A stretch of DNA of 64,000 nucleotides from an uncultured Gammaproteobacteria bacterium (GCA_964549165.1 CAZJUH010000002.1:1896-65895), one strand, 5' to 3'; positions 2,221 to 51,003 are shown, counted from the first letter of the stretch. Notes: a model not told the origin generated them from the letters alone. Translations and numbers: made by a program.

Positions 2221-2254
2221 TTTTAGATTTTAGAATTTAGATTTTAGATTTTTC
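2221..2254. repeat. Tandem heptamer array (TTTTAGA x4, ending TTTAGATTTTTCC) immediately upstream of ftsK
   Basis: Seen directly. Related arrays occur at 5312-5331, 22521-22553 and 50964-51003. Confidence 0.5.
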
Positions 2255-5278: not shown

Positions 5279-5311
5279 TTAATTTTTATTTGTTATTTAT
5301 TAATTATTCGA

Positions 5312-5331
5312 CTTTAGACTTTAGAATTTAA
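5312..5331. repeat. Short heptamer array (CTTTAGA x2 followed by ATTTAAT) upstream of ORF 5339
   Basis: Seen directly. Confidence 0.35.
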
Positions 5332-10680: not shown

Positions 10681-10688
10681 TAGAAAGT

Positions 10689-10886: not shown

Positions 10887-11805
10887 AAGTAGATTAGTTG
10901 CCATTTTTTTAGTTATTTTTTTCGTCCTAATTTTTTATTTTTATCTTTCTCTCTTGCCTCCATCCTCTGATTCATCCAAAAAAGTTTTTGTTATCAACGA
11001 GGGTGACAGTCTGTCAACGATTGCCCTTCGTTTAGAAAAAAATAAATTTATTAAAAATCGCTTTAGTTTTATTGTTTATAGTTATTTACTTGGGTTAAAC
11101 CAAAAAATTCAAGCCGGTAATTTTTATCTGACTTCATCCCAAAAAATACCGGATTTAATCAAAAATATTAGTCGCGGCGGGAGTACTGATTATTGGCTAA
11201 AAATTATTCCTGGTACCAGGGTTGAACAATTTTCTCCCAGTCCTGAGTTTACTCTTATAAGTCAGGATCTAGAGGGTAAATTATTTCCCGATAGTTATCT
11301 AATCCCGCAGGACTATACTCCCGAAAATATATTATCTATTATTGCCAAAAATTATCAGCAAAAATTATCGCAGGCCCAGCTTGGAGCTACTACTAAATAT
11401 TCCGATAAAGACGTCTTAATTATTGCTTCACTTTTAGAGCGTGAAGCCAAAGGATTAACTGACAAAAAAATTATTGCCGGAATAATTGACAATCGTTTAA
11501 GTACTCATATGCCTCTTCAAATTGATGCCACCATTCAGTATGCGAGGGATTCTCTCGGGAATACTATTGATTTTTGGAAACCTATCGCCAAAGCTGATAT
11601 AAATATTGTTTCTCCTTTTAACACTTACAAAAATCAAGGTCTACCCCCCGCGCCCATTTGCAATCCCGGTCTTGATTCCATTATCGCTGCTTATCATCCG
11701 AGTATTACTGATTATCTCTATTATATTCACAATACTACCGACCAAATTCATTATGCTTCAACTTTGTCGGAGCACAACGCCAACATTGCCAAATATTTAA
11801 AATAA
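10876..11805 (+). CDS. mltG: Endolytic murein transglycosylase MltG (YceG family)
   Basis: N-terminal TM segment and the YceG domain. Start chosen at the internal Met (MKFKSRL...). Confidence 0.75.
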   Translation: MKFKSRLVAIFLVIFFVLIFYFYLSLLPPSSDSSKKVFVINEGDSLSTIALRLEKNKFIKNRFSFIVYSYLLGLNQKIQAGNFYLTSSQKIPDLIKNISRGGSTDYWLKIIPGTRVEQFSPSPEFTLISQDLEGKLFPDSYLIPQDYTPENILSIIAKNYQQKLSQAQLGATTKYSDKDVLIIASLLEREAKGLTDKKIIAGIIDNRLSTHMPLQIDATIQYARDSLGNTIDFWKPIAKADINIVSPFNTYKNQGLPPAPICNPGLDSIIAAYHPSITDYLYYIHNTTDQIHYASTLSEHNANIAKYLK

Positions 11806-12891
11806 CTATTTCTCTTTTTTATTTACGAGATCGTTCAATATATTCCAACGTCTTTTTTTCTCACTCATTGGTATTTCATCTTTAAATAGTTTTGCCGACA
11901 CGGTTCCCCTTCGGGGTGAATATTTGTTTAAATAGGTAATTTCAAAATCAACCTTTTTACATACATCAACCGTATTTTGAAACGCTTTTTTATCCTCGCC
12001 GGGAAAGCCAATAATAATATCGGTTGAAAATCTGACATCAGTCACTTTATCTTTAATTTTTTTGACTAAATCTAAATATTCTTTTTGGGTATAGCCACGG
12101 TTCATATTTTTTAGCACTGTATCATCGCCAGATTGAAAGGGGAGATGAAGAAGCCTATCAATATTATGGTATTTACCTATAATTTCTATTAATTCATCCG
12201 AAAAATCCCAGGGGTTACTACTGATAAAAGACACTTTTGTTAATTCTTTTTTCGCCACCTCTTCAAGCAACTTCGGGAAAGCGCTTTTAATTCTTTTTTT
12301 ACCCATTGAAGATTGAAGATTGCAGATTGAAGATTGATTTAAATCTGCCCCATACGAATTTACGTTTTGTCCGATGAGTACAACCTCCTTAAATCCTCTT
12401 TTAATTGCCCCATCAACTTCTTTTAAAATATCCTCAATTTTACGTGATATTTCCTTTCCCCTGGCATAGGGCACAATACAATAAGAACAGTAGTTGTTAC
12501 AGCCGCTACTAATAGTAATTAAAGCTGCTCTTTTTTTATCTCTGAGTGCCTCCACTTCAAAGCTTATCTTTTTAATTGGTAGCATTTCATCGACTCCCTT
12601 AATATTTTTTTTAGAAATCGGCACCAAGCATCCCGTCAAAATAATTCTTCGTCTCGCCGAAGCATTTGCGGAGGCGGATTCCGCTTTTCTTATCTTATCT
12701 ATTAGTCCATACACCCTATTCTCGGCTGATTCCCGAATGACACAGCTATTGATAACAATAAGGTTAGCTTCTTTCCAGTTTTCTACGAGCCGATATCCTT
12801 TGTCTTGATAATAAGTCTTTATTCTTTCCGAATCAGATTCGTTTTGAGCACAGCCAAATGTTTTTAGATATAGTTTATTTTTTCGTAGCAC
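11806..12891 (-). CDS. Radical-SAM methylthiotransferase of the MiaB/RimO family (no TRAM domain seen)
   Basis: N-terminal MTTase domain (TFGCAQNESDSE), radical-SAM CxxxCxxC (SSGCNNYCSYC). Confidence 0.8.
   Translation of the reverse strand: MLRKNKLYLKTFGCAQNESDSERIKTYYQDKGYRLVENWKEANLIVINSCVIRESAENRVYGLIDKIRKAESASANASARRRIILTGCLVPISKKNIKGVDEMLPIKKISFEVEALRDKKRAALITISSGCNNYCSYCIVPYARGKEISRKIEDILKEVDGAIKRGFKEVVLIGQNVNSYGADLNQSSICNLQSSMGKKRIKSAFPKLLEEVAKKELTKVSFISSNPWDFSDELIEIIGKYHNIDRLLHLPFQSGDDTVLKNMNRGYTQKEYLDLVKKIKDKVTDVRFSTDIIIGFPGEDKKAFQNTVDVCKKVDFEITYLNKYSPRRGTVSAKLFKDEIPMSEKKRRWNILNDLVNKKEK
12305..12338. repeat. GATTGAA-type heptamer array (x5) inserted in-frame in the MiaB-like gene. 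It encodes NQSSICNLQSS.
   Basis: Seen directly. A near-identical array occurs at 26955-26987 in an unrelated gene. Confidence 0.55.
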
Positions 12892-13366
12892 GAATCATTT
12901 TACCACCACCCACTATTCCTCCAGCTCCGGTTAATAAAGCGATTAATCCAGGCCAGATGACTCCCGCGGCAGGCAAAGCCTCGGTGCCACTGTCGCTATT
13001 GACCGCATCCCAGTTAACATTGTCAACGCCAGTGGTTAGAGTAAAACTAATATTTGATCCACTACTGGTCAATACTACTTGATGATCCCCGTCAGTTAAA
13101 GCAGGGGAGCTATAGCTCCAATTTCCTGATTCATCGGCTACCGCAGTTCCTTTTTCTCCATCAATATCAATTTCAACCGAAGCACCAGCGGCCGCATCGC
13201 CCAATAATACTGGGCTTGAGCCTGTGTACCACCATTGCGATAACTGTCGGCCACTAGTGTTAACTCCACCAATCGATTTTAAATTAAAACCCCCAGCCAT
13301 AACTTTGTTTCCAGAAAACAAAAATAAAGCACCAACCATAAAAGAGAAAAATATTTTTTTAATCAT
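12875..13366 (-). CDS. Secreted surface protein with an Ig-like region and a sortase-type C-terminal sorting signal (LPAAG, hydrophobic stretch, basic tail)
   Basis: Signal peptide MIKKIFFSFMVGALFLFSGNKVMA. The C-terminus reads LPAAGVIWPGLIALLTGAGGIVGGGKMIRATKK. Confidence 0.6.
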   Translation of the reverse strand: MIKKIFFSFMVGALFLFSGNKVMAGGFNLKSIGGVNTSGRQLSQWWYTGSSPVLLGDAAAGASVEIDIDGEKGTAVADESGNWSYSSPALTDGDHQVVLTSSGSNISFTLTTGVDNVNWDAVNSDSGTEALPAAGVIWPGLIALLTGAGGIVGGGKMIRATKK

Positions 13367-13429
13367 AAATAAATATACAATAAAATCTATTTTATTGCAC
13401 TCCAGTCTCAATAATGAGATTATTATTTC

Positions 13430-14416
13430 ATGACAGACAATCAACCAAACCCTAGCTATCAAGATATTTTAGACAAGTACGCTGAAAGTATTAGCTCAAA
13501 AGAAAACCCCCAGATTCCTGAGGAAAAAATTATTAAACCCGAGCCGGAATTAGAACCAATTAATCCTCCTCAGTCCATCCTTACCCCAGAAGAAGAAATT
13601 GTTAAATCACCGCCTCAAATCGAAGCTCCTCCGACTCCTGAGGCAATTAACCCTCCTACGCCCCTCGTCTCGCCGGAGCCTTCTAGCGAAGGCGGATCTG
13701 ACCTTATTTCACCGCCTAAAAAAGAAAATCATTTCTTTAAATATCTCTTTTTCTTTTCCTTAATTGTTTTTATTATTGTCTTGGTTTTAGTCGTTATTTC
13801 TTTTTTAAATTCTCAAAAACCAATTTCAAATAGTCCAGAAATTCCCATAAATAATGTTTCCCCAACTTCTGCCCCGACTGATTTTTGCGAACTCAATGAT
13901 CAAAAACACTCAGTTGGTACAACTTTTTCTGCTAACGATGGCTGCAATACCTGTACCTGTGGGGAGGATTTAATCATTAACTGCACTACCAAAACCTGCG
14001 ACCTCACCCCAACTCTCCCCGCCACATCTTCACCATCTGCCAAACCATCAACCAGCACTCTTAAATCTCAAGTCGAAGATTGGAAAACTTATACCAAAAG
14101 TAGTGAAAATTTATCTTGGGATAAGTGCGAAGAAGAATCAACAGTTTCTGTAAGTCTCAAAGATGTGGTGTCAAAAAATCCAATTTTTACTAAAAGAATA
14201 GATGGTGTTTATTTAGCTTATTCTTTAAAATCAAATTTTACTGCCGAAGATATCGGTAAATTTGTCATGTGTCAAGCCGGAGGAGAATATCCTATAAAAA
14301 TTATTGAGGATAAAATTTTATGGGTTCATGCTTGTTCAACGGGAATTGCTCCAGATAATCCCAAATGTGAGGACACTCTCACTGCAATAAAAAAACTCTA
14401 TGGTTATGTAAAATAA
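13430..14416 (+). CDS. Hypothetical membrane protein: Pro/Glu-rich N-terminus, one TM segment, and a Cys-rich extracellular domain
   Basis: TM segment YLFFFSLIVFIIVLVLVVISFL. About 8 Cys in the ectodomain. Confidence 0.4.
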   Translation: MTDNQPNPSYQDILDKYAESISSKENPQIPEEKIIKPEPELEPINPPQSILTPEEEIVKSPPQIEAPPTPEAINPPTPLVSPEPSSEGGSDLISPPKKENHFFKYLFFFSLIVFIIVLVLVVISFLNSQKPISNSPEIPINNVSPTSAPTDFCELNDQKHSVGTTFSANDGCNTCTCGEDLIINCTTKTCDLTPTLPATSSPSAKPSTSTLKSQVEDWKTYTKSSENLSWDKCEEESTVSVSLKDVVSKNPIFTKRIDGVYLAYSLKSNFTAEDIGKFVMCQAGGEYPIKIIEDKILWVHACSTGIAPDNPKCEDTLTAIKKLYGYVK

Positions 14417-14418
14417 TT

Positions 14419-14988
14419 ATGAACAAATCAAACTTACTTTTACCCTCTGTCTTAGCTGTTTTATTTACTTCTATTTTAATTATTCTTTCTCCAAATTCTC
14501 AAAAACTATCTCTTTCTTCTCCCACCCCTAGTCCCATTTCTACCGAATCGATTTCCCCCACCCCCGACTTCACCGCCGATTGGAAAACATATAATGACGA
14601 ATTACTTAAAGTAGAATTTAAATATCCTTCGCATTATATCCAAGAAATCACTCAAAATAATAGCTATTATTCTGTTGACCTTTTAGGTTTGGATTACCAG
14701 ACCATTGACAGCGATATGGGAACTCAAAGAAGGGGTACTTTTTTTATTATCACTGAAAATCCAAAATGTAATTCAGGTGCAATAATTGGTGAAACATTAA
14801 TTACTTCTAACAAAATTTATACTATTTACAAAATTAATGGGTACGAAGGTCCGGATTACAAATCTGCTGTTTTAAAAAAACCAAACGGTGATTGTTTAAG
14901 TTTTGGTTGTATGTCAGAAAATCTTTGTGAAGAATCGATTTTTGAAGATTTTGTTTCCATTCTCTCCACCTTTAAATTTATCCCCTAA
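14419..14988 (+). CDS. Hypothetical secreted protein
   Basis: N-terminal signal peptide. Cys-containing C-terminus. Confidence 0.35.
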   Translation: MNKSNLLLPSVLAVLFTSILIILSPNSQKLSLSSPTPSPISTESISPTPDFTADWKTYNDELLKVEFKYPSHYIQEITQNNSYYSVDLLGLDYQTIDSDMGTQRRGTFFIITENPKCNSGAIIGETLITSNKIYTIYKINGYEGPDYKSAVLKKPNGDCLSFGCMSENLCEESIFEDFVSILSTFKFIP

Positions 14989-14997
14989 ATCTCCCCC

Positions 14998-15026
14998 TTG
15001 CTCTACATATAAATTAAGTATATAAT
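14998..15026 (+). promoter_or_regulatory. Sigma70-like promoter TTGCTC-17-TATAAT upstream of rpoB, with a 5' UTR of about 95 nt
   Basis: Perfect -10 at 15021-15026. Confidence 0.45.
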
Positions 15027-15122
15027 TCTCCACATTTGGCGAGCGGTTGGTACATAACTCGCTTGTCCGCGCAATTGCAAAGCTATTGGCGGATCGCTTC
15101 TCTTATATTTTTAAACTTAACG

Positions 15123-18100
15123 ATGCCTTCCGCAAAAAGAACTAATTGGGGTAAAAAATATCCTCAAATTCCTGCTTTAGATTTATTAGCTGTTCAAAAA
15201 GAATCCTGGGAAAAATTTCTCAAAACCGATCTCGAAGAAACCGTCCGTGCCATTTCTCCTATCTCCGATTACACTGGTAACAACTGGCTTTTAGAACTGG
15301 GTGAACTTTTTTACGATAAACTGACCTTAACTCCAGAAATTTCCCGTCTTAAGGGTTTAAATTATACTGTTCCCGTCTATACCAAGGCTAAACTTACCAA
15401 TAAAAGAACTGGTCTCGTCCGTGAAGAAGATGTTTTTCTTCTAAATCTTCCTACCATGACCCCCGAAGCTACCTTTATTATTAATGGTATCGAAAGGGGA
15501 GTTATCAATCAATTAGTTCGCTCTCCCGGAGTGTATTTCACCAGTGAAATCGATCCTGCCACTGGCAAAACTCTCTGCAATGCGGAGATTCGCCCAGTTC
15601 GTGGTTCTTGGCTCGAATTTTTCATCGGCAAAAAAGATGTTATTTTTGCCCGTATTGACCGTAAAAAGAAAGTTCCTGCGACCATTATTCTCAGAGCCGC
15701 CGGGGCCTTAACCGACAAACAATTAGTTGGTGAATTCGGAGATTATATCAATGGTACTATTACCGCTGACCCCACCAAAACTCAAGAAGAAGCCTATCTC
15801 GAATTTTATCGCAAGCTTCGTCCCGGTGAACCAGTTGTTCTTGAAAACGCTCAAAAATTTTTCAACGACCGCTTTTTTGATCTTCGAACTTACGAGCTCG
15901 GTCAAGTCGGCCGCCACAAAATCAATAAAAAGTTCTCCTTTAATTTCTCTGACGAAAATAAAGAAAATTGGGTTATCAAAAAAGAAGATTTAATCGCTAC
16001 TATCCGTCATTTAATTAAACTTCAAAAAGGTGAAGCGACTCATTTTGATGACATCGATTCTCTCGCCAATCGTCGTCTTCGCCGCTGTGGTGAAATCGTG
16101 GCTCAGGTCGCTCTTCGTCCTGCTATGGCCCGTTTTGAAAGAATGGTCAAAGAGAGAATGTCTCTACTTTCCACCAAAGAAAAACCGACTCCATCTCAAA
16201 TGATCAATCCTCAGCCCCTTATTTCTTCTCTCAATACCTTTTTTAGAAGCAATCAGCTTTCAGCTATTCTAGACCAGACCAATCCTCTGGCTGAGCTTGA
16301 TTTACTTCGACGAGTCACCGTAGTTGGTGTCGGCGGTTTAACCCGCGAAAGAGCGGCTTTTTCTATCCGCGACGTTCATTCTTCTCAGTATGGCCGCATT
16401 TGTGCCGTTCGTTCTCCTGAAGGTCCAAATATTGGTCTTGTTACTTACCTCGCTCTTTATGCCAAGGTCAATAAATATGGTTTTATTGAAGCTCCTTTCC
16501 GAAAAATTGTCAAAGTCGGTAAAAATTATACCTTTTCCGATGATGTAATTTATATGGATGCTGACGATGAATACGATCATCAGATTACTCATCTTGGCAT
16601 TAAAATAGAAGACAATGTTATTAAACAAAATTGGGTTCCGGTTCGTTTTCAAGGTGAATTTTCCGAAGGTCCCATCGATCAAGTCAAATTCATTGATATG
16701 GTACCAAACGAAATTGTCGGTGCCTCTGCTTCTTTGATTCCTTTTATTGACCATGACGATGCCACCCGGGCTCTAATGGGCTCTCACATGCAGACTCAGG
16801 CTGTCCCTTTGGTTCAGCCCGAAGCTCCCATTGTAGGTACTGGTATGGAAGCTGACGTTGCTTCTGCCATGAGTCGCTGTGTCTTGTCAAAAAACAGTGG
16901 TACTGTTACTTATGTTGACGCTGACAAAGTCATTGTTGACGATATTACCTATCCTATAACAAAATTTGAAAGAACTTCACCTTATGGTACTTGTTACAAT
17001 CAACAGGTTCTCGTTAACCTTGGCGATAAGGTCAAAAAGGGCGATGTCTTAATTGATGGTCCAGCTACCAGTCAAGGAGAACTTTCTATTGGTCGGAATT
17101 TACTCGTCGCTTACGCTTCTGTTGACGGTTTGGGTTACGAAGATTCCTTTTTAATTTCTGATCGTTTAGTTAAAGAGGATGTTCTCACCAATATTCAAAT
17201 CTTCGAATACAAAGCCGATGTGGTTGAAACTAAACTTGGCACTGAAGAATTAACTAAAGATATTCCGAATGTATCTGAAGCAGAACTGGCTAAATTAACC
17301 GAAGATGGCATTGTCATGATTGGCGCCACTGTTGGTCCAAACGATATTCTTGTTGGCAAAGTCGAACCTCGAGGTGAAAAAGAATTAACTGCTGAAGAAA
17401 GGCTATTAAGAGCTATTTTTGGTGAAAAAGCCCGAGAAGTCAAAGACACTTCTCTTCGGGTTCCCAATGGTGAGGGTGGAGTCGTCATCAAAATTGAAAC
17501 TTTAGGTAAAGAAGATGGTGATGAACTTGATCCTGGTGTCAATAAAGTTGTCAAAGTTTACGTCGCTCAGCTTCGCCGAATTCAAGAAGGTGATAAAATC
17601 GCTGGTCGTCATGGAAACAAGGGTGTTATTTGCCGAATTATGCCTGAATATGATATGCCCCACCTTGCTGAAGGAACCCCAGTTGATTTGGTTATGTCAC
17701 CTCTTTCAGTTATTGCCCGTATGAATCTTGGTCAAATCCTCGAAGTTATTTTAGCAGCTGCCGGCCAAAAATTAAACAAAAAATATGCCGTACCTGTTTT
17801 CGAAAAATATAGTGAAGCTCAAATTGGTAAAGAACTTACCGAGGCTGGTCTTGCTGTCACCGGAAAAACTAAATTATTTGATGGTCGCACCGGCGATGCC
17901 TTCGATCAAGATGTGGTTATTGGTGTTGGTTATATTCTAAAACTCGTCCATATGGTTGATGACAAGGTTCATGCTCGTTCTACTGGTCCCTATTCTCTCG
18001 TTACTCAGCAGCCTCTTGGTGGAAAAGCCAGAATGGGTGGTCAACGTCTCGGGGAAATGGAAGTTTGGGCTCTTGAGGCTCATCAAGCGGCTCATATTTT

Positions 18101-18329
18101 ACAGGAAATGCTGACTATCAAATCCGATGATATCGAAGGTCGAACGCATGCCTTTCAAGCTATTATTAAAGGTCAAGCTATTCCTGAGCCAGCCATTCCT
18201 GAGTCATTTAAGGTATTAACCAAAGAACTCGCTGGATTAGCACTTGATATTTCTCCTGTCGGAATGAAACCCGTCGCTGAAGAAGAAAAAGATGATTCAA
18301 AAGTTGAAGATTTAAAGGAGGACAACTAA
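15123..18329 (+). CDS. rpoB: DNA-directed RNA polymerase beta subunit
   Basis: Conserved RpoB blocks throughout. Start chosen at MPSAKRTNWGKK rather than the upstream in-frame Met. Confidence 0.9.
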   Translation: MPSAKRTNWGKKYPQIPALDLLAVQKESWEKFLKTDLEETVRAISPISDYTGNNWLLELGELFYDKLTLTPEISRLKGLNYTVPVYTKAKLTNKRTGLVREEDVFLLNLPTMTPEATFIINGIERGVINQLVRSPGVYFTSEIDPATGKTLCNAEIRPVRGSWLEFFIGKKDVIFARIDRKKKVPATIILRAAGALTDKQLVGEFGDYINGTITADPTKTQEEAYLEFYRKLRPGEPVVLENAQKFFNDRFFDLRTYELGQVGRHKINKKFSFNFSDENKENWVIKKEDLIATIRHLIKLQKGEATHFDDIDSLANRRLRRCGEIVAQVALRPAMARFERMVKERMSLLSTKEKPTPSQMINPQPLISSLNTFFRSNQLSAILDQTNPLAELDLLRRVTVVGVGGLTRERAAFSIRDVHSSQYGRICAVRSPEGPNIGLVTYLALYAKVNKYGFIEAPFRKIVKVGKNYTFSDDVIYMDADDEYDHQITHLGIKIEDNVIKQNWVPVRFQGEFSEGPIDQVKFIDMVPNEIVGASASLIPFIDHDDATRALMGSHMQTQAVPLVQPEAPIVGTGMEADVASAMSRCVLSKNSGTVTYVDADKVIVDDITYPITKFERTSPYGTCYNQQVLVNLGDKVKKGDVLIDGPATSQGELSIGRNLLVAYASVDGLGYEDSFLISDRLVKEDVLTNIQIFEYKADVVETKLGTEELTKDIPNVSEAELAKLTEDGIVMIGATVGPNDILVGKVEPRGEKELTAEERLLRAIFGEKAREVKDTSLRVPNGEGGVVIKIETLGKEDGDELDPGVNKVVKVYVAQLRRIQEGDKIAGRHGNKGVICRIMPEYDMPHLAEGTPVDLVMSPLSVIARMNLGQILEVILAAAGQKLNKKYAVPVFEKYSEAQIGKELTEAGLAVTGKTKLFDGRTGDAFDQDVVIGVGYILKLVHMVDDKVHARSTGPYSLVTQQPLGGKARMGGQRLGEMEVWALEAHQAAHILQEMLTIKSDDIEGRTHAFQAIIKGQAIPEPAIPESFKVLTKELAGLALDISPVGMKPVAEEEKDDSKVEDLKEDN

Positions 18330-21300
18330 TGTTTAAATTTAAAAATATGCTCGATTTTACTGGTATCGAGATTAAACTCGCTTCCCCAGAAGAGATTCTC
18401 TCCTGGTCAAGTGGTGAAGTTTTAAAACCGGAAACCATAAACTATCGTTCTTGGCGTCCTGAAAAAGATGGTCTTTTTTGTGAAAAAATCTTTGGACCCT
18501 CCCGTGATTACGAATGTTATTGTGGCAAATACAAAAAAATCCGATTTAAGGGTGTTATTTGCGATAAATGCGGAGTTGAAGTCACTACTAGCAAGGTTCG
18601 TCGTGAACGTATGGGTCACATTGCCCTAGCAGCTCCTATTGCTCATTTATGGTACCTTCGAAATACCCCCTCACCTTTAAGTGTGATTCTCGATGTTCCC
18701 CAAAAAGAGCTTGAAGCTGTCGTTTATTTTACAAAATACTTAGTTACTGCCATTGACGCCGATAAAAAGAAAGAAGCTTTAGTAAATCTGGAAATAAATT
18801 CTGAAAAACGCCAAAGTCAAATCGATGTTGACTCAAAAGAGTCAATTGAAAAACTCAAAGCTCAAACTGCCAAAGAGAAAAAAGATCTTGACAATAAAAT
18901 TAAAAATAAAGATCAGCTTTTAATTGCCAAAGAAGAGCGTGAGGTAAGGCTGAAGCAGGATGTTCAAAAAATTGAAAATAAAGCTACCAGCGAGAAAAAC
19001 CGCATCGAATCTTTAATCAAATTTCTTGAAGATAAGATCAAAAGCATGGAAGTTCTCTCTGTCCTTACTGACGAAGAAGAATTTTACTTAGCTCAGTTTA
19101 AAGCCGATATTTTTTATCAGGCCAAAATGGGGGCCGAGGCTTTACTTGAAGTCTTAAAAAATCTTGATTTACCTGAAACTGTAAAAAATCTTAAAAAAGA
19201 ACTAGCCAAAACCAGCAGCAAACTTAAAAAGAAAAAGATCATGTACAAAATCCGAATTTTAAATGGCATGATTGAAAATTCTATTAGTCCCGCCTGGACC
19301 ATCTTACAATATATCCCGGTTATTCCACCAGATCTTCGGCCTATGGTTCAGCTTACCGGTGGCCGCTTTGCTACTTCTGATTTAAATGATTTATATCGCC
19401 GTCTCATTAATCGTAATAATCGTCTTAAGAAATTAATCAAACTTGGCGCTCCTGAAATCATTCTTCGAAATGAAAAAAGAATGCTCCAAGAATCAGTTGA
19501 TATTCTCATTGATGCTCAAAAAGCCTCAAAGAATAAACGAAAAAGTAGCAAGCGTTTACCTCGTTCCCTTTCAGATCTACTTCGGGGTAAAAAAGGTCGT
19601 TTCCGACGTAATTTACTCGGGAAAAGAGTCGACTATTCTGGTCGTTCTGTCATTGTGGTTGGTCCCGAACTAAAATTAAATCAAGTCGGTCTTCCCAAGG
19701 AAATTGCTCTCGAAATGTATCGACCCTTTGTTCTCCGAGAGCTAATGGACAGTGGTCTGGCTGCCAATATCAAATCTGCCAAAAATTTAATTGATCACCG
19801 TATCAATGAGGTTTATGATATTTTGGAAAAAGTTACCAAAAATACTTACGTTCTCTTAAACCGGGCCCCCACTCTTCACAAACTTTCAATTCAGGCCTTT
19901 AAACCGGTCTTAACTGACGGTCTGGCTATTCGTCTTCACCCTTGTGTCTGTAAGGGTTTCAACGCCGACTTTGACGGAGACCAAATGGGGGTTCATTTAC
20001 CTCTATCCGCCGCCGCTCAAAGAGAAGCTAAGCACTTAATGTTGCCTTCGAGAAATCTTCTCAAACCTTCTGACGGGGCTCCAGTTTCTATTCCTTCTCA
20101 GGAAATGGCCGTCGGCTGTTATTACATCACCTCTGTCCGTTCCGAGGATATTTCCAAAGAAACTCAGTCTGATTTTAAAGACTTATCAATTATGGGAGAC
20201 AAGGATGAATTAATTTTAGCCTATCAATCAGGAAAAATTGGCTTAAGAGAATTAGTGGCTGTCAGAATCGAAGGTAAACTAATTAAGACTACTTATGGTC
20301 GAGTTTGGTTTAACTCTGTCTTGCCAAAAGAATTTGAGTTTTTAAATCTGCCTATGGCGGGAGCTAAAGCTTTAAATGACCTAATCGTTAAGTCTTTAGA
20401 AATTTCTAGTCGTTTAAAAACTGTCAAATTAATCGATTCCTTAAAAGATATCGGTTTTGCTGGTTTTACTCTCTCGGGACTTTCTCTCTCTATGCTTGAT
20501 ATGGGCTATCTTCCCGAAAAAAAATCAATTATTGCCGCGGCTGACAAGAGAGTCGTTGAAATTGAAAACAATTATAAAATGGGTCTAATTAGCAATGAAG
20601 AGAAAAAACGTCTCTCTCAAAGTGTCTGGATGGAAATTACCGAAAGTATTGCTGAAAAGACCTGGGAAACTTTAGACAGCGATTCTCCAATTCGCATTGT
20701 TTCCGCCGCTGGTATCAAGCGGGCCAGTAAAGATCAAATCAAACAGCTTTCTGGTATGAGAGGTCTGATGGTTGATCCTACGGGAAAAATCGTTCAACTA
20801 CCTACTAAAAGCAACTTTCGTGAAGGTCTTTCTGTGTTTGAATACATTACCGGTACTCGGGGCACTCGCAAGGGTCTGGCTGACACCGCTCTGCGTACTG
20901 CCGATGCTGGTTACTTAACTCGTCGTCTCGTTGATACCTCTCATGTCGCCATTACCCGCGAAAATGACTGTGGTACAACTCGTTTTTGGACTATTGATCG
21001 TAATGAAAAAGGTCGGGAAAAATTCTTTGGTCGTCGTCTTCTTGGTCGGGTTCTCGGTAGTGATGTCATTGATCCCAAAAACAAAAAAATTATTGCCAAA
21101 AAAGGTGATTTAGTCGACAATCATCTGCAAAGCATAATTGAGACCAGCGAAGTCAAAACCGTTGATGTTCGTTCTCCGCTAACTTGTAAATCAAAAATTG
21201 GCCTTTGTCGTCAATGTTACGGCTGGGATTTATCCAGTCGCCAGCTCGTTGGCTTTGGTGTTCCCGTTGGGGTCATCGCTGCCCAGTCTGTCGGTGAACC

Positions 21301-22069
21301 GGGTACCCAGTTAACTCTCCGAACTAAGCACACGGGTGGTGTTCTCGGAGTTGACGTGACTCAAGGTTTACCCCGTATTCAGGAATTATTCGAGGTCAGG
21401 ACTCCAAAATTACCCTCTCCTCTGGCTGAAATAGACGGCAAGGTAAAAATTAAAGAAAATATCGATGGCTATGAAATAAAACTCAGTGGTAAAGACAAAA
21501 ATAATGCCGCCAAAACCGTCAATTATTTACTTCCCAGCAATGTCACCCTATTAGTTGGTGATGGTGATTTGGTTGGCCAGGGAACTCAGCTTTGTTCTGG
21601 ACCGATTGATGTCAGAGAGATTCTCGAAGTATCGGGTCTTGAAGCTGCTCAGCGCTATCTGATAAATTCCATTCAAGGGGTTTATGAATCTCAAGGTATT
21701 GGTATTCACGATAAACACATTGAAGTAATTGTCAGGGAAATGAGCGATAAACTAAAAATTGAAGATCCAGGTGATACCAATTTCCTTTATGGTCAGGTGG
21801 TAACTAGGCCTGTTTATGAAGCTGAAAATGATAAAGCCAAAGAAAACGTCAAAGACGGCAAAGCTTCAAAAGGACACAAAGTTCTTTTGGGTTTAATTCA
21901 ATCGTCTTTGACCACAGGTTCATGGCTTTCTGCCGCTTCTTTCCAGCAAACTACCGGAGTCTTAACCGAGGCTTCGCTGCTGGCCGAGGTTGATAACTTG
22001 ATAGGTCTAAAAGAAAATGTTATTATCGGACGTCTTATTCCTGTCGGAAAAAGCCAGGAAATTAAATAA
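18329..22069 (+). CDS. rpoC: DNA-directed RNA polymerase beta' subunit
   Basis: Zn-finger CxxC, NADFDGD catalytic motif, and conserved C-terminal blocks. Confidence 0.95.
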
Positions 22070-22071
22070 AT

Positions 22072-22494
22072 ATGCCTACCTATAACCAACTAATTAGTAA
22101 ATGTCGCAAAGTTCGTCGTCTTAAATTAAGAACCGGAGCTTTACGGGATAATTTTAATAGTATCAAAAATAGTAGTGTTGTTACCTACAATCCTCAAAAA
22201 AAAGGAGTGGTAACGGTCGTTAAAACCATGACTCCCAAAAAGCCTCATTCAGCTTTGCGAAAAGTGGCCAAGGTTCGTCTCAGTAATCGGGCCACGGTAA
22301 CGGCTTATATTCCTGGAATTGGGCACAATTTAGCCGAACACGGTATTATTTCTATTCGCGGTGGTCGGGTCCGAGATCTTCCCGGTGTCCGCTACCATAT
22401 TATTCGCGGTAAATATGACGCCGGTGCTGTTGCCGGTCGTCAGCAATCCCGCAGTAAATATGGCGCGAAAAAATCCACTAAAGCTTCCGCTTAA
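22072..22494 (+). CDS. rpsL: 30S ribosomal protein S12
   Basis: Canonical S12 sequence ([11 protein letters not shown]...). Confidence 0.95.
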
Positions 22495-22520
22495 TATTAT
22501 ATGTTAAATTTATTAAAAAT

Positions 22521-22553
22521 ATTTAGAATTTAGGCTTTAGGCTTTAGATTTTA
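22521..22553. repeat. Heptamer array TTTAGAATTTAGGCTTTAGGCTTTAGATTTT between rpsL and rpsG
   Basis: Seen directly. Nearly identical to 50971-51003. Confidence 0.5.
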
Positions 22554-22569
22554 ATTTTTATTTTATTTT

Positions 22570-23052
22570 ATGTCACGCAAAGGTCAAAGCAAAATTAGAG
22601 AAGTTCTTCCTGATACCAAATATAACAGTATTGTGGTTACCAAATTAATTAATCGGGTGATGTATGCCGGCAATAAAAATGCAGCTCAAAAACAAGTTTA
22701 CGAAGCTTTAGATATTTTTAAAAAAGACAGTAAAAGCGAAGATATTATTACTACTCTAGAGCAGGCTCTTGACAATCTTAAACCCAAAGTTGAGGTTCGA
22801 CCTCGCCGTATCGGCGGAGCCGTTTACCAGGTACCCACTCCTGTTCGAGGCACTCGTCAATATTCTCTGGCCATCAGATGGCTTGTCACCTCTGCTCGTA
22901 AACGCCCAAATAAACAATTTCACACTTTTGCTGGGAAATTAGCCGCCGAGCTTTTGGCGACTCTAAACAACGAAGGAGCTTCGATAATGAAGCGTCAGGA
23001 AATCGAGAGAATGGCTGATGCCAACAAGGCCTTTGCCCACCTTAGATGGTAA
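22570..23052 (+). CDS. rpsG: 30S ribosomal protein S7
   Basis: Canonical S7. Confidence 0.95.
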   Translation: MSRKGQSKIREVLPDTKYNSIVVTKLINRVMYAGNKNAAQKQVYEALDIFKKDSKSEDIITTLEQALDNLKPKVEVRPRRIGGAVYQVPTPVRGTRQYSLAIRWLVTSARKRPNKQFHTFAGKLAAELLATLNNEGASIMKRQEIERMADANKAFAHLRW

Positions 23053-23069
23053 TATGTTAAGATATTTTA

Positions 23070-24404
23070 ATGTCGTTATTCTCGAAACCTAAAGTTGTTC
23101 TCTGGCCTAAAAAAGACAGCCTTGAAATCTATTTTGATAAAACTGACAACAATACTCTTTCTTTTGAAACTGATCTTTGGCAGGCACAGTCTGAGGACAG
23201 TCTCCAAAATTTAGCCAACTTTTTTCAAAAAAATAATATTTCGGAGGTTTACGTTATCTTGGACGATACTTACGTTATTATCAAAACCTTTATTTATGAT
23301 TCAGTAATTGCAACTCTTGATCCAAATGAGGTAGTTACTTTAGCCAAAGATTCGGTCGATTTCAAAATCTCACCCGAAGCCGTCACCTTTGATCTAGAGC
23401 CTGACAATGAGCGTACTTTAGTTCGTACCCGAATTTTTAATCAAGAAAAATTTCTCCTCCTAACCACCAATCTTGAAAAACTAGGCCTAAAAGTTATAGA
23501 TTTCGAAACTCTTTCTTCCGCCATTGCCAAGCTTTACGCTCATTTTGACAATGGTCAACATTTCTTTTTTTATCCTATAAATACGCACGATTATGTGGCT
23601 ATTCTTTCAAGCAAAGGTCACGTCTATTTGACTTCGATTATTAAAAAAACTTTGCCCGAGCTTAAAAAATTACTTAATTATTCCCAGGCTTTTTTCAATA
23701 ACCCGAAGCCTTCTCAGTATTTTCCCGGTGAAAATTACAATGAAAGTGAAATTTGCCAGCGCTTTCAAAAAGCGTCAAATTTACCTCTGCCAGTTCTTTC
23801 CTTTTTTGTTGGCACGGCCAAACCAAATTCTGCTATAATAAAACCAACAGAACCTCTTATTGATTCACCTCAAAGTCAAATTTCTATGGAAAATAATAAA
23901 AAAAATATTTTACCGATTATTGCTGTTTTTTTAATTACAATTTTAATCACTGCCGCCATTGTTTGGTTTGTTCTTAATCAAAATAATAAAAATACTGAAA
24001 TTAACACTCCTGCCGGTGATTCACTTCCTGAGACCAGTGAAATAAGCGCCACAGTTGTTAGCCAGGCTCCCACTCCAACTTTAGCTGAAATTAGTAAAAC
24101 CATAAAAATTCAGGTTTTAAATGCCACTGATATTAATGGTCAAGCTGCCACTATCAAGACGGAGTTAACCAGTCTTGGTTTTACTAGCGTTACCACCGGC
24201 AATAGGGCTAAAAAAGAAACTACCAATCAGATTCAAGCCAAAAAAGAAATTGCGACTGATTATTTTTTACAGAAAATTCCTCAATTTTCTAAGAGTACTG
24301 TTACCGAATTATCAGCCACTTCCAGTTACGACCTTATTTTTATTATTGGTACAGATCTTAAAGCGACCAGCACTCCCTCGGCTTCTCCTAGTATTAATCC
24401 TTAA
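23070..24404 (+). CDS. Hypothetical membrane protein with a C-terminal LytR_C-like domain
   Basis: A TM segment around residue 280, and a C-terminal IKIQVLNATDINGQA...DLIFIIGTDLK resembling the LytR/CpsA/Psr C-terminal domain. Confidence 0.4.
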   Translation: MSLFSKPKVVLWPKKDSLEIYFDKTDNNTLSFETDLWQAQSEDSLQNLANFFQKNNISEVYVILDDTYVIIKTFIYDSVIATLDPNEVVTLAKDSVDFKISPEAVTFDLEPDNERTLVRTRIFNQEKFLLLTTNLEKLGLKVIDFETLSSAIAKLYAHFDNGQHFFFYPINTHDYVAILSSKGHVYLTSIIKKTLPELKKLLNYSQAFFNNPKPSQYFPGENYNESEICQRFQKASNLPLPVLSFFVGTAKPNSAIIKPTEPLIDSPQSQISMENNKKNILPIIAVFLITILITAAIVWFVLNQNNKNTEINTPAGDSLPETSEISATVVSQAPTPTLAEISKTIKIQVLNATDINGQAATIKTELTSLGFTSVTTGNRAKKETTNQIQAKKEIATDYFLQKIPQFSKSTVTELSATSSYDLIFIIGTDLKATSTPSASPSINP

Positions 24405-24409
24405 ATACC

Positions 24410-25432
24410 ATGAAAATTTTAGTCACCGGTGGTTGTGGCTTTATCGGCAGCAATTTTATCCACTATTGGCTTTCTCGACACCCAGATGATTTTATTGTGA
24501 ATCTTGACAAGCTTACTTACGCCGCTAATCCCGCCTCTCTAAAAGATTTAGACGGTAGTTTTCACTATCAATTTATTCAGGGTGATATCTGTGATGAAAA
24601 TTTAGTCGACACAATTTTGTCAGACAAAATTGAGTTAATTGTTCATTTTGCCGCCGAATCTCATGTTGATCGGTCGATTGATGATCCTCTCCTTTTTGTC
24701 AAAACTAATGTCCTTGGAACCTATACTCTATTAAACTACGCCAAAAAACACGGTAATATTCGTTTTCATCACGTTTCCACTGACGAAGTCTTTGGCTCTA
24801 TTCCTTTTGGCTCATCGGCTCAGTTTTCAGAGCAGACTCCCTATGATCCTTCTTCTCCTTACTCCGCTTCAAAAGCAGCTTCAGATCATTTTGTCCGCTC
24901 TTTCCACAAAACCTTTGATTTGCCTATCACTATCACTAATTGCTCAAATAATTACGGTCCTTTTATGAATCCGGAAAAAATGATTCCTCGGATGATTACA
25001 AATATTATTGATAATAAAAAAATTCCTGTTTATGGCCGAGGAGAAAATTTTCGCGACTGGCTTTATGTGACTGATCACTGCTCCGCTATCGAGTCTGTCA
25101 TTGCTCGGGGGAAAATTGGTGACACTTATTGTATTGGCGGTCTTAAAGAAACTTCAACCAATATTGATCTTGTTAAAAAAGTTCTCAAGTTAATGGGTGG
25201 GGATGAGTCTCTGATTGAATTTGTGGCTGACCGGCCTGCCCACGATAATTATGCCGTTTCTTGGGAAAGAATACATCATGAGCTTGGCTGGGAACCCAAA
25301 GAGACTCTTGATTCTGGCCTTATCAAAATGATTGCCTGGTATAAGGAAAACGAATCATGGTGGCGTAGTGCCAAAACCGAAGCCGAAGCCTTTTATCAAA
25401 AGCTTAACGACTATAAAAATTTAAACAAATAA
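24410..25432 (+). CDS. rfbB: dTDP-glucose 4,6-dehydratase
   Basis: GGCGFIGS Rossmann motif, YSASKAASD catalytic motif. Confidence 0.85.
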   Translation: MKILVTGGCGFIGSNFIHYWLSRHPDDFIVNLDKLTYAANPASLKDLDGSFHYQFIQGDICDENLVDTILSDKIELIVHFAAESHVDRSIDDPLLFVKTNVLGTYTLLNYAKKHGNIRFHHVSTDEVFGSIPFGSSAQFSEQTPYDPSSPYSASKAASDHFVRSFHKTFDLPITITNCSNNYGPFMNPEKMIPRMITNIIDNKKIPVYGRGENFRDWLYVTDHCSAIESVIARGKIGDTYCIGGLKETSTNIDLVKKVLKLMGGDESLIEFVADRPAHDNYAVSWERIHHELGWEPKETLDSGLIKMIAWYKENESWWRSAKTEAEAFYQKLNDYKNLNK

Positions 25433-26004
25433 TGCCCTACGAACAAATAAGCGAAACAGATTTAAAGGGTGTTTTTAAAATTCAGCCAAAAGTTTTTATT
25501 GACGCGAGGGGTTATTATTCACCCACCTTAGTCGTCTCAGAGTTTGAAAAAGCCACTAGTGGTTCTTTTAACTTAATTCAAGTTGCCTCTTCATTCAATT
25601 CCGAAAAAGGAATTTTTCGTGGACTACATTATCAAGCTCCTCCCTATACGCAGGGTAAATTAGTTATGGTCACGGAGGGCTCAGTTTTAGATATTGCTCT
25701 CGATATTCGAAAAAATTCTCCCACTTTTGGCCAGCACATCACTGAGGTTTTAACTGCCAAAAAACAAAATCAACTTTGGGTTTCGCCAGGATTTGCCCAT
25801 GGTTATCTGGCTCTCGAAAATAACACCCGCTTCACTTATTTTGTCACCGGTGGGGTTTACTCACCTCAAAACGAAAAGGGAGTTAATGTTTTTGATTCTT
25901 CGCTCAAGATTGATTTACCTCTCAGTTGCGGTGAAATTAAGCTCAGTGACAAAGACCAGCTTTTACCAAATTTAAGCGATATTTTAAAAGAAAACTTATT
26001 ATGA
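25432..26004 (+). CDS. rfbC: dTDP-4-dehydrorhamnose 3,5-epimerase
   Basis: Cupin-fold RmlC motifs. Confidence 0.8.
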   Translation: MPYEQISETDLKGVFKIQPKVFIDARGYYSPTLVVSEFEKATSGSFNLIQVASSFNSEKGIFRGLHYQAPPYTQGKLVMVTEGSVLDIALDIRKNSPTFGQHITEVLTAKKQNQLWVSPGFAHGYLALENNTRFTYFVTGGVYSPQNEKGVNVFDSSLKIDLPLSCGEIKLSDKDQLLPNLSDILKENLL

Positions 26005-26903
26005 AAAAACAAATTTTAGGGACTGGCCTATCCGGCTTAGTAGGTTCGAGAGTAGTTGAGCTCAATCCAGATTTTAACTTTGCCGATGCTTCTCTTGAGA
26101 CTGGCGTCAATATTCTTGATAAAAAGGAATTAGAGCAGTTTTTTAAAGACAATCCCGAGTCTAATATTCTTATTCATTTCGCCGCTTTTACTGATACCAA
26201 TGCCGCCTGGAATCAAAAAGGGGATAAAAACGGTCTCTGCTATCAACTAAATGTCAACGGTACCCAAAACATAGTCGATTTATGTAAAGAGTATCATGAA
26301 TATTTAATCCATATTTCCACTGATTTTGTTTTTGATGGCACCAAAAAAACTGAATATACTGAAAAAGATTTACCTCATCCCCTCGATTGGTATGGGGAAA
26401 CTAAATATCTGGCCGAAAAATTAATTTTAGACTCCGGTCTCCCCGCTTCTATTGTTCGAATTGCCTTTCCTTACCGATCTTCATCAACCACCAAAGTCGA
26501 TTTTGTCAGAAAAATAATTAATAAACTTCAGAATAATGAGACGGTGACCATGTTTACCGACCAGAAAACAACTCCCACCTTTATCGATGACATTGGTCTC
26601 GGTTTGCGCTTTTTTATTGATAAAAAACCAAATGGTATTTACCATCTTGTCGGACCCACTTCCCAATCACCCTACGATACGGCCAAAAATATTGCTCAAG
26701 TTTTTGATTTAAACGCTGATTTAATTAAAAGCTCATCTCTTGAAGATTATCTGCGTACTCCTGGTGCCCGTCCTTATGCCAAAAACTTAAGTTTATCAAG
26801 TCAAAAATTTTCAACCGAATCCGGTTTTTTCCCTAGAAATCCTATTTCCGGTTTTGAAGAATTAAAACGGCAGCTTTCTCTCCCTCCCTCACCGCGTAGT
26901 TAA
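26001..26903 (+). CDS. rfbD: dTDP-4-dehydrorhamnose reductase
   Basis: RmlD-like short-chain reductase. Coupled to rfbC by a 4-nt overlap. Confidence 0.7.
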   Translation: MKKQILGTGLSGLVGSRVVELNPDFNFADASLETGVNILDKKELEQFFKDNPESNILIHFAAFTDTNAAWNQKGDKNGLCYQLNVNGTQNIVDLCKEYHEYLIHISTDFVFDGTKKTEYTEKDLPHPLDWYGETKYLAEKLILDSGLPASIVRIAFPYRSSSTTKVDFVRKIINKLQNNETVTMFTDQKTTPTFIDDIGLGLRFFIDKKPNGIYHLVGPTSQSPYDTAKNIAQVFDLNADLIKSSSLEDYLRTPGARPYAKNLSLSSQKFSTESGFFPRNPISGFEELKRQLSLPPSPRS

Positions 26904-28080
26904 CCCCTCTATCTTCCGGATAAATCATCGCAAAATTCGCCTGAATTACTTTATTGTTTGATTGAAGATTGGAGATTGAAGATTGATAATTAGTGGTCAC
27001 AATGTGCTGCGCGTATTTAAATTTAAAAACAAATTTTTCTTCAATTTCTTTTTCCTTAAACTCAGGAAAAATTTTTTTTAGATATCCAAAAAAATCTTTT
27101 TCAATCAAAGCATCTTTACAGGTAAAATATTTGTGATTTTGGGGTAAATATGTTCCCATGTAATAAATATTTTTATCGCCATAATTTTCTGTTCCAACTA
27201 AATTAGTGTGTTGAATAAAAGCCAGAAAAGGGGATTTGGTGTCGTTAATGTTGTGCCAATAAAATTTGCTTAAATTTTGTTTTGAAGAAAAAACTACCGT
27301 TACCGCTCCCAAATAACCAATATTTTCTATCGGCGCCGTACTAATAATTTTGTCATATTCTTTTTCTAATTTTCCAAAATCTAAAATCTCATTTCTCATC
27401 TCTATTCTTCCCCCCATCTTTTTGATTCTCTTTTCTAGTTCATCAATAATCAGTTGAAATCCACCATTCATATATCCCAAATATTCCCTTGCCACGCCAA
27501 AGCCTTTGGCGTCGGCGGGTTTTCCTTTCGAATTCCCCCTGGTATGAATTCTAGCCCACATCCAGGCCATTGAAATATCTTTATACCTATCACTAAATTT
27601 ACCTTTGAGCAGTGGCTCCCAGACAACTCGATAAGCTCTGTCTCCACACCATTTTTTCATCCATTTATAGGCTAAAACATTTTCAAATTTTTTCCAATTA
27701 TTTTTTTTTTCGAGATATATTTTGACCAGACCCAGTCGCAGTTTATCAATTAAACTGAGTGGCTTAAATTTCAATAAATCCATGGCTCCGGCAAAAGGAT
27801 ATACTTTCCCCTCGTAGTAAAGGGCCGTCTTACTCTCATACCATTTCAATTTATTTTCCAAGCCTAATTCTTTTATTAAGGCGATTATTTCTTTATCGCC
27901 TTTAAAAATATGATGATAGGCTTTTTCCAAATTAGTCCCCTCTATTTTAAATCCGCCTAAAAGTCCACCCAAATCCTCGCTCTTTTCAAATATAGTTACT
28001 TGATATTTTTTTTGTAATAGCCGATAAGCGGCTACAAGTCCAGTAATTCCTCCGCCCACCACTAATATTTTCGACTTCAT
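26842..28080 (-). CDS. FAD-dependent oxidoreductase (amine-oxidase / UDP-galactopyranose-mutase-like fold)
   Basis: N-terminal GGGITGL dinucleotide-binding motif. Its 3' end overlaps the rfbD 3' end by about 62 nt. Confidence 0.5.
   Translation of the reverse strand: MKSKILVVGGGITGLVAAYRLLQKKYQVTIFEKSEDLGGLLGGFKIEGTNLEKAYHHIFKGDKEIIALIKELGLENKLKWYESKTALYYEGKVYPFAGAMDLLKFKPLSLIDKLRLGLVKIYLEKKNNWKKFENVLAYKWMKKWCGDRAYRVVWEPLLKGKFSDRYKDISMAWMWARIHTRGNSKGKPADAKGFGVAREYLGYMNGGFQLIIDELEKRIKKMGGRIEMRNEILDFGKLEKEYDKIISTAPIENIGYLGAVTVVFSSKQNLSKFYWHNINDTKSPFLAFIQHTNLVGTENYGDKNIYYMGTYLPQNHKYFTCKDALIEKDFFGYLKKIFPEFKEKEIEEKFVFKFKYAQHIVTTNYQSSISNLQSNNKVIQANFAMIYPEDRGVNYAVREGEKAAVLILQNRK
26955..26987. repeat. 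GATTGAA-type heptamer array inserted in-frame in the FAD-oxidoreductase gene. It encodes NYQSSISNLQSNN.
   Basis: Seen directly. Paralogous to 12305-12338. Confidence 0.55.
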
Positions 28081-50963: not shown

Positions 50964-51003
50964 TTTTAGGTTTTAGAATTTAGGCTTTAGGTTTTAGATT
51001 TTT
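50964..51003. repeat. Heptamer array TTTTAGGTTTTAGAATTTAGGCTTTAGGTTTTAGATTTTTCC, abutting the GGATCC palindrome
   Basis: Seen directly. Confidence 0.5.

Follow-up and report, generated by a model that had tools for sequence, protein, structure and literature searches.

Heptamer arrays in three genes

The DNA analyzed here is a stretch of 64,000 nucleotides (CAZJUH010000002.1:1896-65895; the whole stretch is "the window") in which short tandem arrays of the heptamer GATTGAA, which reads CAATCTT on the other strand, lie inside protein-coding genes. Judging by the names attached to its close homologues, the host is an uncultured, ultra-small bacterium of the candidate phyla radiation (CPR), within the Microgenomates, and is similar to Shapirobacteria and Woesebacteria. 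The original prediction, made from the sequence alone, described two such arrays in unrelated minus-strand genes, one for a MiaB-like methylthiotransferase and one for a flavin adenine dinucleotide (FAD) oxidoreductase. Both arrays were confirmed by Tandem Repeats Finder (TRF) and by 12-mer counts compared to shuffles, the peptides read from the minus strand, DLNQSSICNLQSSM and TNYQSSISNLQSNN, are correct, and homology supports the names given to the host genes (Table 1).

The array in the MiaB-like gene, CATTGAAGATTGAAGATTGCAGATTGAAGATTGAT (12304-12338), and the array in the FAD gene, GATTGAAGATTGGAGATTGAAGATTGAT (26960-26987), have a period of 7, with 4.7 copies and 92% matches in the former and 3.9 copies and 90% matches in the latter. 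A 29-nt core is common to the two and the variant base falls in the same unit; the central unit is interrupted in both, and no perfect period-7 run exceeds 18 nt. If up to one mismatch is allowed, the 12-mer GATTGAAGATTG occurs eight times in the window against an expectation of 0.83, and 0 of 100 shuffles reached eight. All of these matches are confined to the MiaB and FAD arrays and to a third array, in the gene for proline--tRNA ligase (ProRS), and a repeat search of the window grouped the three as one family. The prediction that a single repeat family is involved was thus sound, and the same unit is more dispersed than had been noticed: it is found at three loci in the 64 kb of the window and, in the relative L206, at a second site in the FAD gene. 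A separate Logan assembly of this organism (L001) also encodes the MiaB protein with its array, and the arrays recur in orthologues from other samples; they are therefore not assembly artefacts.

Table 1. Genes, heptamer arrays and other repeats in the window, by position and strand.
Feature	Position	Strand	Remarks
ProRS gene	795..2216	+	hosts array 3
ProRS array (array 3)	1904..1932	+	opposite strand is sense: (GAAGATT)n reads NEDCSLKIEDL; family D2
Intergenic (TTTTAGA)n	2221..2252	+	26 nt upstream of FtsK-like start; family D3
Intergenic (GACTTTA/TTTAGAC)n	5310..5330	+	9 nt upstream of open reading frame (ORF) 5339
MiaB/RimO-family radical-SAM methylthiotransferase gene	11806..12891	-	361 aa; hosts array 1
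MiaB array (array 1)	12305..12337	-	sense CAATCTT CAATCTG CAATCTT CAATCTT CAAT(GGG); QSSICNLQSS, residues 186-195; family D2
Intergenic (ATTTAGA/TTTAGGC)n	22521..22553	+	rpsL-rpsG spacer; orthologous arrays in relatives L212 and L216
FAD/NAD(P)-dependent oxidoreductase gene, PRK07233 type	26842..28080	-	412 aa; hosts array 2
FAD array (array 2)	26957..26992 (core 26960-26986)	-	sense TAATTAT CAATCTT CAATCTC CAATCTT CAATCAA; (NY)QSSISNLQS(N), residues 366-374; family D2
Weak heptamer-like stretch in FAD gene	27376..27404	-	TAGAGAT GAGAAAT GAGATTT TAGATTT; IEMRNEILDF; position of the polymorphic array of relative L206
Intergenic (TTTTAGG/TTTAGGC)n	50964..51002	+	between convergent genes; abuts palindromic element D1
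Palindromic element D1, four copies	5504-5536, 43244-43276, 45638-45670, 51003-51035		30-33 nt

The original prediction had attached significance to the reading frame common to the MiaB and FAD arrays. The shared frame is uninformative because 7 and 3 are coprime: an array crosses all three frames every 21 nt, and any frame of (CAATCTT)n gives the cyclic peptide QSSIFNL. The strand, by contrast, is constrained by stop codons. (CAATCTT)n is free of stops in every frame while its complement, (AAGATTG)n, contains TGA, and the two minus-strand genes have CAATCTT as sense for that reason. The ProRS gene reads the complement, with the sense codons AAT GAA GAT TGT AGT CTG AAG ATT GAA GAT TTA, with TGT and TTA at precisely the two places where a perfect array would have TGA. 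TRF found seven period-7 arrays in the window, and AGATT lies on the plus strand in all seven. With regard to a possible rule tying orientation to the replication strand, the leading strand was not identified by GC skew (-0.076), and the ProRS array is flipped in the relative L212. Since the ProRS array is of opposite sense, its mRNA has perfect complementarity to those of MiaB and FAD over as many as 14 bases (GAAGAUUGAAGAUU / AAUCUUCAAUCUUC). This complementarity is missing in relatives with the other ProRS array orientation and is probably incidental.

Mapping on homologous structures, which had been proposed as a check, placed the three arrays in different settings. The MiaB array coincides with a 10-residue gap relative to the B. 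uniformis MiaB structure (7mjz), and in the AlphaFold (AF2) model of the protein the sole segment with a per-residue confidence (pLDDT) below 50 is 187-195, at the array; by this model the segment is a disordered loop following a barrel strand. A short helix with pLDDT of 77-87 is predicted for residues 365-374 of the FAD protein, at its array. The ProRS array aligns without a gap to T. thermophilus ProRS (1h4q), and an I/L..L...I..LL heptad pattern runs through this position in most of 120 homologues, so that we take it to be a heptad helix. These settings bear on the proposal that selection acts on the protein, for the peptide QSSIxNLQS, and that the DNA repeat is incidental. The I..L spacing does suit a helix heptad, as the predicted FAD helix and the periodic ProRS segment illustrate. 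Yet the modeled MiaB segment is disordered, the ProRS position tolerates the unrelated reverse-strand peptide IEDCSLKIED, relatives carry quite different sequences at the same positions, and what is conserved is the codons and not the residues alone (see below). We consider selection for the peptide highly improbable.

Conservation of the array nucleotides

The arrays are old, in that orthologues share them down to 67% amino acid identity, with the FAD codons unchanged to that level. The codons of the FAD array, CAA TCT TCA ATC TxC AAT CTT CAA TCA, are identical in genes whose proteins are 85, 83, 76 and 69% identical, while the codons flanking the array have synonymous differences at nearly every position. 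When columns with a conserved degenerate residue were compared across five genomes, a single codon was kept in 7 of 7 array columns, compared to 74 of 220 (34%) elsewhere in the FAD gene (P ~5e-4). The use of residue-specific same-codon rates derived from FAD, EF-G and EF-Tu (Q 0.45, S 0.15, I 0.27, N 0.26, L 0.08) lowered the probability to ~2.8e-5. One codon was kept in six of the seven columns of the MiaB array, against 40%. The finding that would have spoken against a DNA-level repeat, conserved residues written in unrelated codons, is the opposite of what the orthologues display: they keep the same codons.

Most of the substitutions present in the arrays change the residue (F/Y/C/S at the central codon, S/T, Q/E), and four of seven hit position 7 of the unit. 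Among 52 units CAAT never varies, and conservation is ~88% at positions 5-6 and 67% at position 7, although orthologues are counted repeatedly in this set and the units are not independent. The central FAD variant is TCC in four of five genomes; in the window the corresponding codon is TGC in the MiaB array and TCC in the FAD array.

Two forms of recombination were considered and rejected. Recent import of the arrays by homologous recombination is at odds with the directly flanking codons, whose divergence equals that of the gene as a whole. Continuing conversion of the MiaB array by the FAD array of a genome, or the reverse, is at odds with the observation that orthologous arrays are more alike than the two arrays of the window, which differ as TGC and TCC.

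Nucleotide constancy of this kind might be expected of functional cis-acting elements, that is, tandem sites (CAATCT/AGATTG and a single base as spacer) bound by a clade-specific factor that recognizes DNA or RNA, with the nucleotides under purifying selection and the coding context merely tolerated. The unchanged synonymous sites next to diverged flanks fit this proposal, as do the invariant CAAT and the variable seventh position, the presence of AGATT on the plus strand of every array in the window, and the intergenic arrays just upstream of start codons, which have the same core (TAGATTT). Nevertheless, the repeated counting of orthologues weakens the unit statistics, no candidate binding factor was found, the orthologous slot is free of arrays in close relatives that otherwise look normal, and the ProRS orientation varies among relatives. 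Scans for promoters and RNA structure at the arrays were also negative. A promoter on the plus strand was rejected, as the arrays, with 0, 1 and 0 matches, did not exceed shuffles; predicted RNA folds were likewise no better than shuffles (z = -0.5, +1.7 and 0.0), no palindrome was found at the arrays, and tRNA was the sole match in an Rfam search. Cis-acting elements therefore seem to us rather unlikely.

The single variable base has some resemblance to the target of a diversity-generating retroelement, being an A on the plus strand that becomes C, G or T. Such a target is unlikely here: only one of the three A's varies, and no template copy was found among the repeats of the window, though no search aimed at reverse transcriptases was made.

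Slot length and alternative sequences

We refer to the position of an array in its host gene, and to the corresponding position in homologues, as the "slot". The arrays had been described as sequences inserted in genes. From the alignments, "insertion" would be a fair word for the MiaB array alone, and then only loosely. Compared to the allele of the relative L216 (88% identical), which is without an array and reads AAT GAA GAA TAT ATA GTA TCT ATG, the MiaB array allele has an additional 4 aa (12 nt), and 12 nt is not a whole number of heptamers. For the FAD and ProRS genes the description does not hold, since in 120 homologues of each the length is unchanged: the FAD slot is equally long with or without an array, and indels occur in the ProRS slot in 0 of 120.

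The contents of the slots vary widely. The MiaB loop is hypervariable across 120 homologues, most of which have GADFNEESTVSMGKK; in a clade of close homologues (82-91% identical) the loop is [EK][EQ]S[ST]I[CFY]NLQ[ST]S, and other homologues have unrelated loop inserts, for example PSKSPFDKGD, ISDVRSQMSEN and IKMSDVSSQISEK. Alternatives in the FAD slot are QSSI[FYS]NLQSN, KKQITRNKDG, REKIKNLNKT, NYQLSIINYQL, palindromic inserts, and NYQLRITNYELE, which in the relative L213 is a perfect (AATTACG)3.6 array. The distribution of the arrays among genomes, as judged from homologues assigned to one contig by its length, is patchy: the window has them at 3 of 3 loci, a 145-kb contig at ProRS and MiaB, a 94-kb contig at FAD only, and more distant genomes at none of these loci.

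The common core of the MiaB and FAD arrays and its identically placed variant base, the patchy presence among close relatives, and the greater length of the MiaB array allele could be taken to mean that a block of 29-30 nt is a small element, mobile or templated, similar to the Rickettsia palindromic elements (RPE), that was copied in frame into genes. The remaining evidence is difficult to reconcile with such a block. Length does not change at FAD and ProRS, the 12 nt by which MiaB differs correspond neither to the block nor to whole heptamers, the ends of the arrays grade into conserved codons of the flanks (NY = AATTAT-C in FAD, SM = TCAATG in MiaB), there is no palindrome or fold, and array length varies by site. 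Moreover, a true in-frame element of the window, the palindrome D1, behaves otherwise: it is a discrete 10-aa insert, present or absent, that is found even inside the MiaB array in relatives. The heptamer arrays are thus unlike this insertion family, contrary to what had been predicted, and a mobile block is quite improbable.

The D1 element (TCCGCCAAAGGCGGATCCGCCTCAGGCGGA) is read in frame as one 10-aa peptide, or a close variant of it, in four ORFs, on either strand. In the proteins P0361, P0363 and P0366 the 10-aa D1 block (SAKGGSVSGG) lies inside the MiaB heptamer array, and the other members of the same 90% cluster are without the block. D1 is a discrete RPE-like insertion in frame, apparently mobile, and it is probably the first repeat family of the original prediction, in which the heptamers were the second. 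MiaB residues ~183-197 and FAD residues ~364-378 are also hot spots for further lineage-specific inserts (P0008, P0053, P0056, P0137, P0140, P0157, P0191, P0240 and others). Those in the MiaB and FAD loops of homologues, such as PSKSPFDKGD, NPSALRASPLDKGDT, PSKPTPNPSLDKEGRTEMDKLS and LNPPPTPPLTRRGD, appear on back-translation to derive from GC-rich palindromic repeats.

Block replacement, orientation and copy number

Within one cluster of FAD proteins more than 90% identical (P0124, 17 members; P0375-P0388), equal-length alleles, QSSIYNLQSNKKIIHS and KKQITRNKQSGKIIQA, occupy the same slot. The slot holds either QSSIYNLQSN or KKQITRNKQSG, a case of allelic block replacement, and the proteins are 403 aa long in all 15 members listed. 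The ProRS slot is found in two orientations. Sense GAAGATT, giving IEDC[SR]LKIEDLL, occurs in the window and in P0242-45, P0250, P0255, P0268 and P0286; sense CAATCTT, giving I[SF]NL[QE]STISNLL, occurs in P0246, P0248, P0256/7 (the proteins of L212) and P0316. When the 36-nt slots of the window and L212 were compared, the reverse complement matched at 24 of 30 positions and the direct strand at 10 of 36. These alignments would be explained either by inversion in place or by separate origins, one per orientation, where a heptad pattern already existed.

Copy number varies in the second FAD-gene array of L206, which consists of 5.7 units of CAATCTT (10650-10689). The FAD protein of L206 is 67% identical to that of the window. 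L206-type FAD proteins (P0167, P0389-P0402), which form one 90%-identity cluster, are 399, 406 or 413 aa long, corresponding to 1, 2 or 3 copies of SSIINLQ, and are otherwise identical; each copy is 21 nt, CAATCTT CAATCTT CAATTAT, and one further allele is 397 aa long. Several contigs break inside this array. The prediction that the frame is maintained by selection on length is borne out here, because this longer array of the same unit varies only in frame-preserving steps of 21 nt (7 aa), as expected of slippage under such selection.

Such variation raises the question of whether the arrays are contingency (phase-variation) switches, in which the gain or loss of units would shift the frame and turn the MiaB or FAD enzyme on and off. 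A coding heptanucleotide repeat that is in frame only at copy numbers divisible by three is a known switch, as in E. coli neuO (PMC13001214), the L206-type array is polymorphic in copy number and breaks assemblies, and the FAD gene adjoins cell-surface genes (dTDP-rhamnose and LytR). But the window arrays in MiaB and FAD are short and interrupted, and they have the same length in all orthologues, as the uniform P0124 cluster illustrates. ProRS is an essential enzyme and tRNA modification by MiaB a housekeeping function, and even among L206-type proteins the intact alleles are only those in frame, at the lengths given above. We regard a switch as improbable.

Period-seven repeats in related and other genomes

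Heptamer arrays are common in the lineage. Among tandem arrays of at least 2.8 copies, TRF assigned period 7 to 27 of the 36 in 233 kb of Shapirobacteria-like DNA (10 loci and the window, with orthologous arrays counted per genome), compared to 21 of ~160 in 1.2 Mb of control loci, which were metagenome loci fetched via RpoC, those listed being at 54% identity or less. The units are specific to clades or genomes. CAATCTT is found in the window and in L122, L124, L206, L208 and L210-212, while the units of L213 are AATTACG, AATTTTC and AATTATC. In L215, whose MiaB is 65% identical, AGATGTC/AGATCTC arrays lie at 9370-9402, 10214-10245, 10596-10626 and 10893-10919, within 1.6 kb; three are inside MiaB (RSQISDVRSQI, MSDVSSQIS and RSQISDVR) and one is in the opposite-strand neighbor, all in one absolute orientation.

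Four arrays of the window are intergenic, and three of these terminate 9-26 nt upstream of a start codon. Two of the seven positions of their unit, TAGATTT, distinguish it from AAGATTG, and it has stops on both strands. From this comparison, the intergenic TTTTAGA/TTTAGGC arrays could be the CAATCTT family without the coding filter. The TTTTAGA/TTTAGGC unit also resembles plant-type telomere repeats, which is probably a coincidence.

A scan of a genome collection for (GATTGNA)x3.7 returned at least 120 loci, and the matches listed include Chloroflexota, Cyanobacteria, Acidobacteriota, Bacteroidota, Verrucomicrobiota and two Patescibacteria. Among the loci listed, period 7 accounts for 382 of ~570 arrays; 206 of the 382 have other units, and one locus (L059) has 26 of these by itself. 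Because period 7 dominates in loci from several phyla, heptamer-rich genomes are a recurring type that extends well beyond cyanobacteria. In Chloroflexales (for example, Oscillochloris sp. ZM17-4) the (GATTGCA)n arrays often form closely spaced inverted pairs, which are potential hairpins; the loci with such pairs, mostly from Chloroflexales, are L003, L010, L035, L045, L051, L060, L090, L099, L108, L111 and L112. A similar inverted pair of heptamer arrays is found in the rpsG-rpsL spacer of L213 (5653-5745).

Two further observations concern the host genes. The 361-aa MiaB-like protein matches MiaB/RimO profiles to about position 362 of 429 and, by this comparison, seems to be without the C-terminal TRAM domain, like its CPR homologues of 326-397 aa. 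The FAD gene and an RmlD-like ORF on the plus strand (26001-26903) are convergent and overlap at their 3' ends by 62 nt (26842-26903), and the array lies 57 nt past the RmlD stop.

Origin of the arrays

The heptamer arrays are older and more widespread than the original prediction held, and they are not an insertion family. What sets them apart is the constancy of their nucleotides, for which plain slippage does not account, and the occurrence of two orientations in one ProRS slot, which is odd. We lean toward the view that they are simple-sequence repeats of a clade-specific family, similar to the short tandemly repeated repetitive (STRR) heptanucleotides, rather than transposed inserts. The sense unit is CAATCT plus any base, and it belongs to a family of 7-nt arrays that populate both spacers and genes in Shapirobacteria-like CPR genomes. 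Their membership in this family, their age and location, the filter for frame and stops, the 21-nt steps of a relative and the constant synonymous sites are established by the data above. An array inside a gene would survive only under three conditions: that the protein tolerates a peptide with a period of seven residues, as in the MiaB loop, the FAD surface helix and the ProRS segment; that the sense strand is free of stops, being either CAATCTT or, once its TGA codons have been lost by mutation, the reverse strand; and that the total length keeps the frame. Long arrays would then change by slipped-strand events in steps of three units (21 nt, 7 aa). The constancy of the unit would be due to slippage, to correction from unit to unit, or to constraint at the nucleotide level, and the encoded peptides would be by-products.

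Several observations weigh against this view. Plain slippage does not account for the presence of one unit at several unlinked sites in a clade, nor for an interrupted array of four units that keeps its synonymous sites while the rest of the gene falls to ~60% same-codon identity. The retention of TCC in four of five FAD lineages argues against ongoing homogenization of units, and the replacement of whole blocks, as in the P0124 slot, together with the two ProRS orientations, goes beyond what slippage alone could do. The family also rests on few independent loci, as the source genome is represented by 64 kb and its relatives by ~20 kb each.

These difficulties leave room for a function at the nucleotide level or for a sequence-directed process. 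Such a process would write and maintain one heptamer per clade at many sites, essential genes included, with equal-length replacement, flips in place, and nucleotide-level selection tied to a function of the DNA or RNA. Candidates for the writing process are a factor that recognizes CAATCT+N arrays, or templated short-patch synthesis. We consider this unlikely; if true, the proliferation of STRR-type heptamers would be a widespread and mechanistically unified trait of several phyla and not a cyanobacterial curiosity.

Heptamers in conserved protein genes are useful in that the genetic code serves as a measuring device for constraint. Synonymous sites reveal that the nucleotides are kept and not the peptide, stops reveal which strand is tolerated, and alleles that differ in steps of 7 aa reveal slippage filtered by frame. 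Metagenome data alone could address the nucleotide-level constraint and the source of the period of 7. On the practical side, array segments mislead alignment-based phylogeny, fragment CPR assemblies, and give lineage-specific peptides in proteins such as ProRS and MiaB.

Comparison with known systems

We found no account of heptamer arrays in CPR in the literature searched, the coverage of which was incomplete, so that this is weak evidence of novelty. The closest likeness is to the STRR heptanucleotides of heterocyst-forming cyanobacteria, reportedly described by Mazel et al. in 1990. To our knowledge these have been familiar since then without an accepted origin or function. The two have in common tandem 7-nt units, lineage-specific unit families, dispersed copies, and tolerance inside a functional gene. 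STRR sequences, however, are cyanobacterial and mostly intergenic, whereas the arrays of the window have a CPR host and lie inside protein-coding housekeeping genes, where they are translated in all three frames, filtered for stops and unchanged at synonymous sites. The unit of the window is unlike STRR1-3, and the resemblance is one of kind only. For the tolerance of STRR heptamers inside a gene, PMC2858038 cites Vioque 1997, who placed them inside the gene for RNase P RNA.

A second comparison is with repeated DNA that is tolerated in frame in conserved genes, at surface-exposed positions. The RPE, which Ogata et al. are said to have reported in 2000 as inserted in frame in protein genes, share this property with the heptamer arrays. 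They are palindromic mobile elements of 100-150 bp that add a discrete peptide, whereas the heptamer arrays have no palindrome, differ in length and for the most part leave the length of the gene unchanged; the 30-nt palindromic element of the window is the better RPE analogue.

The neuO gene of the E. coli K1 phage CUS-3 carries the heptanucleotide coding repeat AAGACTC (PMC13001214). As in the arrays described here, a 7-nt repeat in an ORF gives a heptad peptide and strand slippage changes the copy number. But neuO has 3-53 perfect copies, most of its alleles are out of frame, and it is a true switch, whereas the arrays of the window have 4-5 interrupted copies of constant length among orthologues, in housekeeping genes. 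Finally, in Borgs, tandem repeats of nucleotides inside ORFs give rise to amino acid repeats (PMC9879509). Genome-specific proliferation of repeats, frame filtering within ORFs and low-complexity protein segments are common to both systems; the in-ORF units of Borgs are divisible by three, whereas here the unit is 7 nt and only blocks of three units (21 nt) are neutral.

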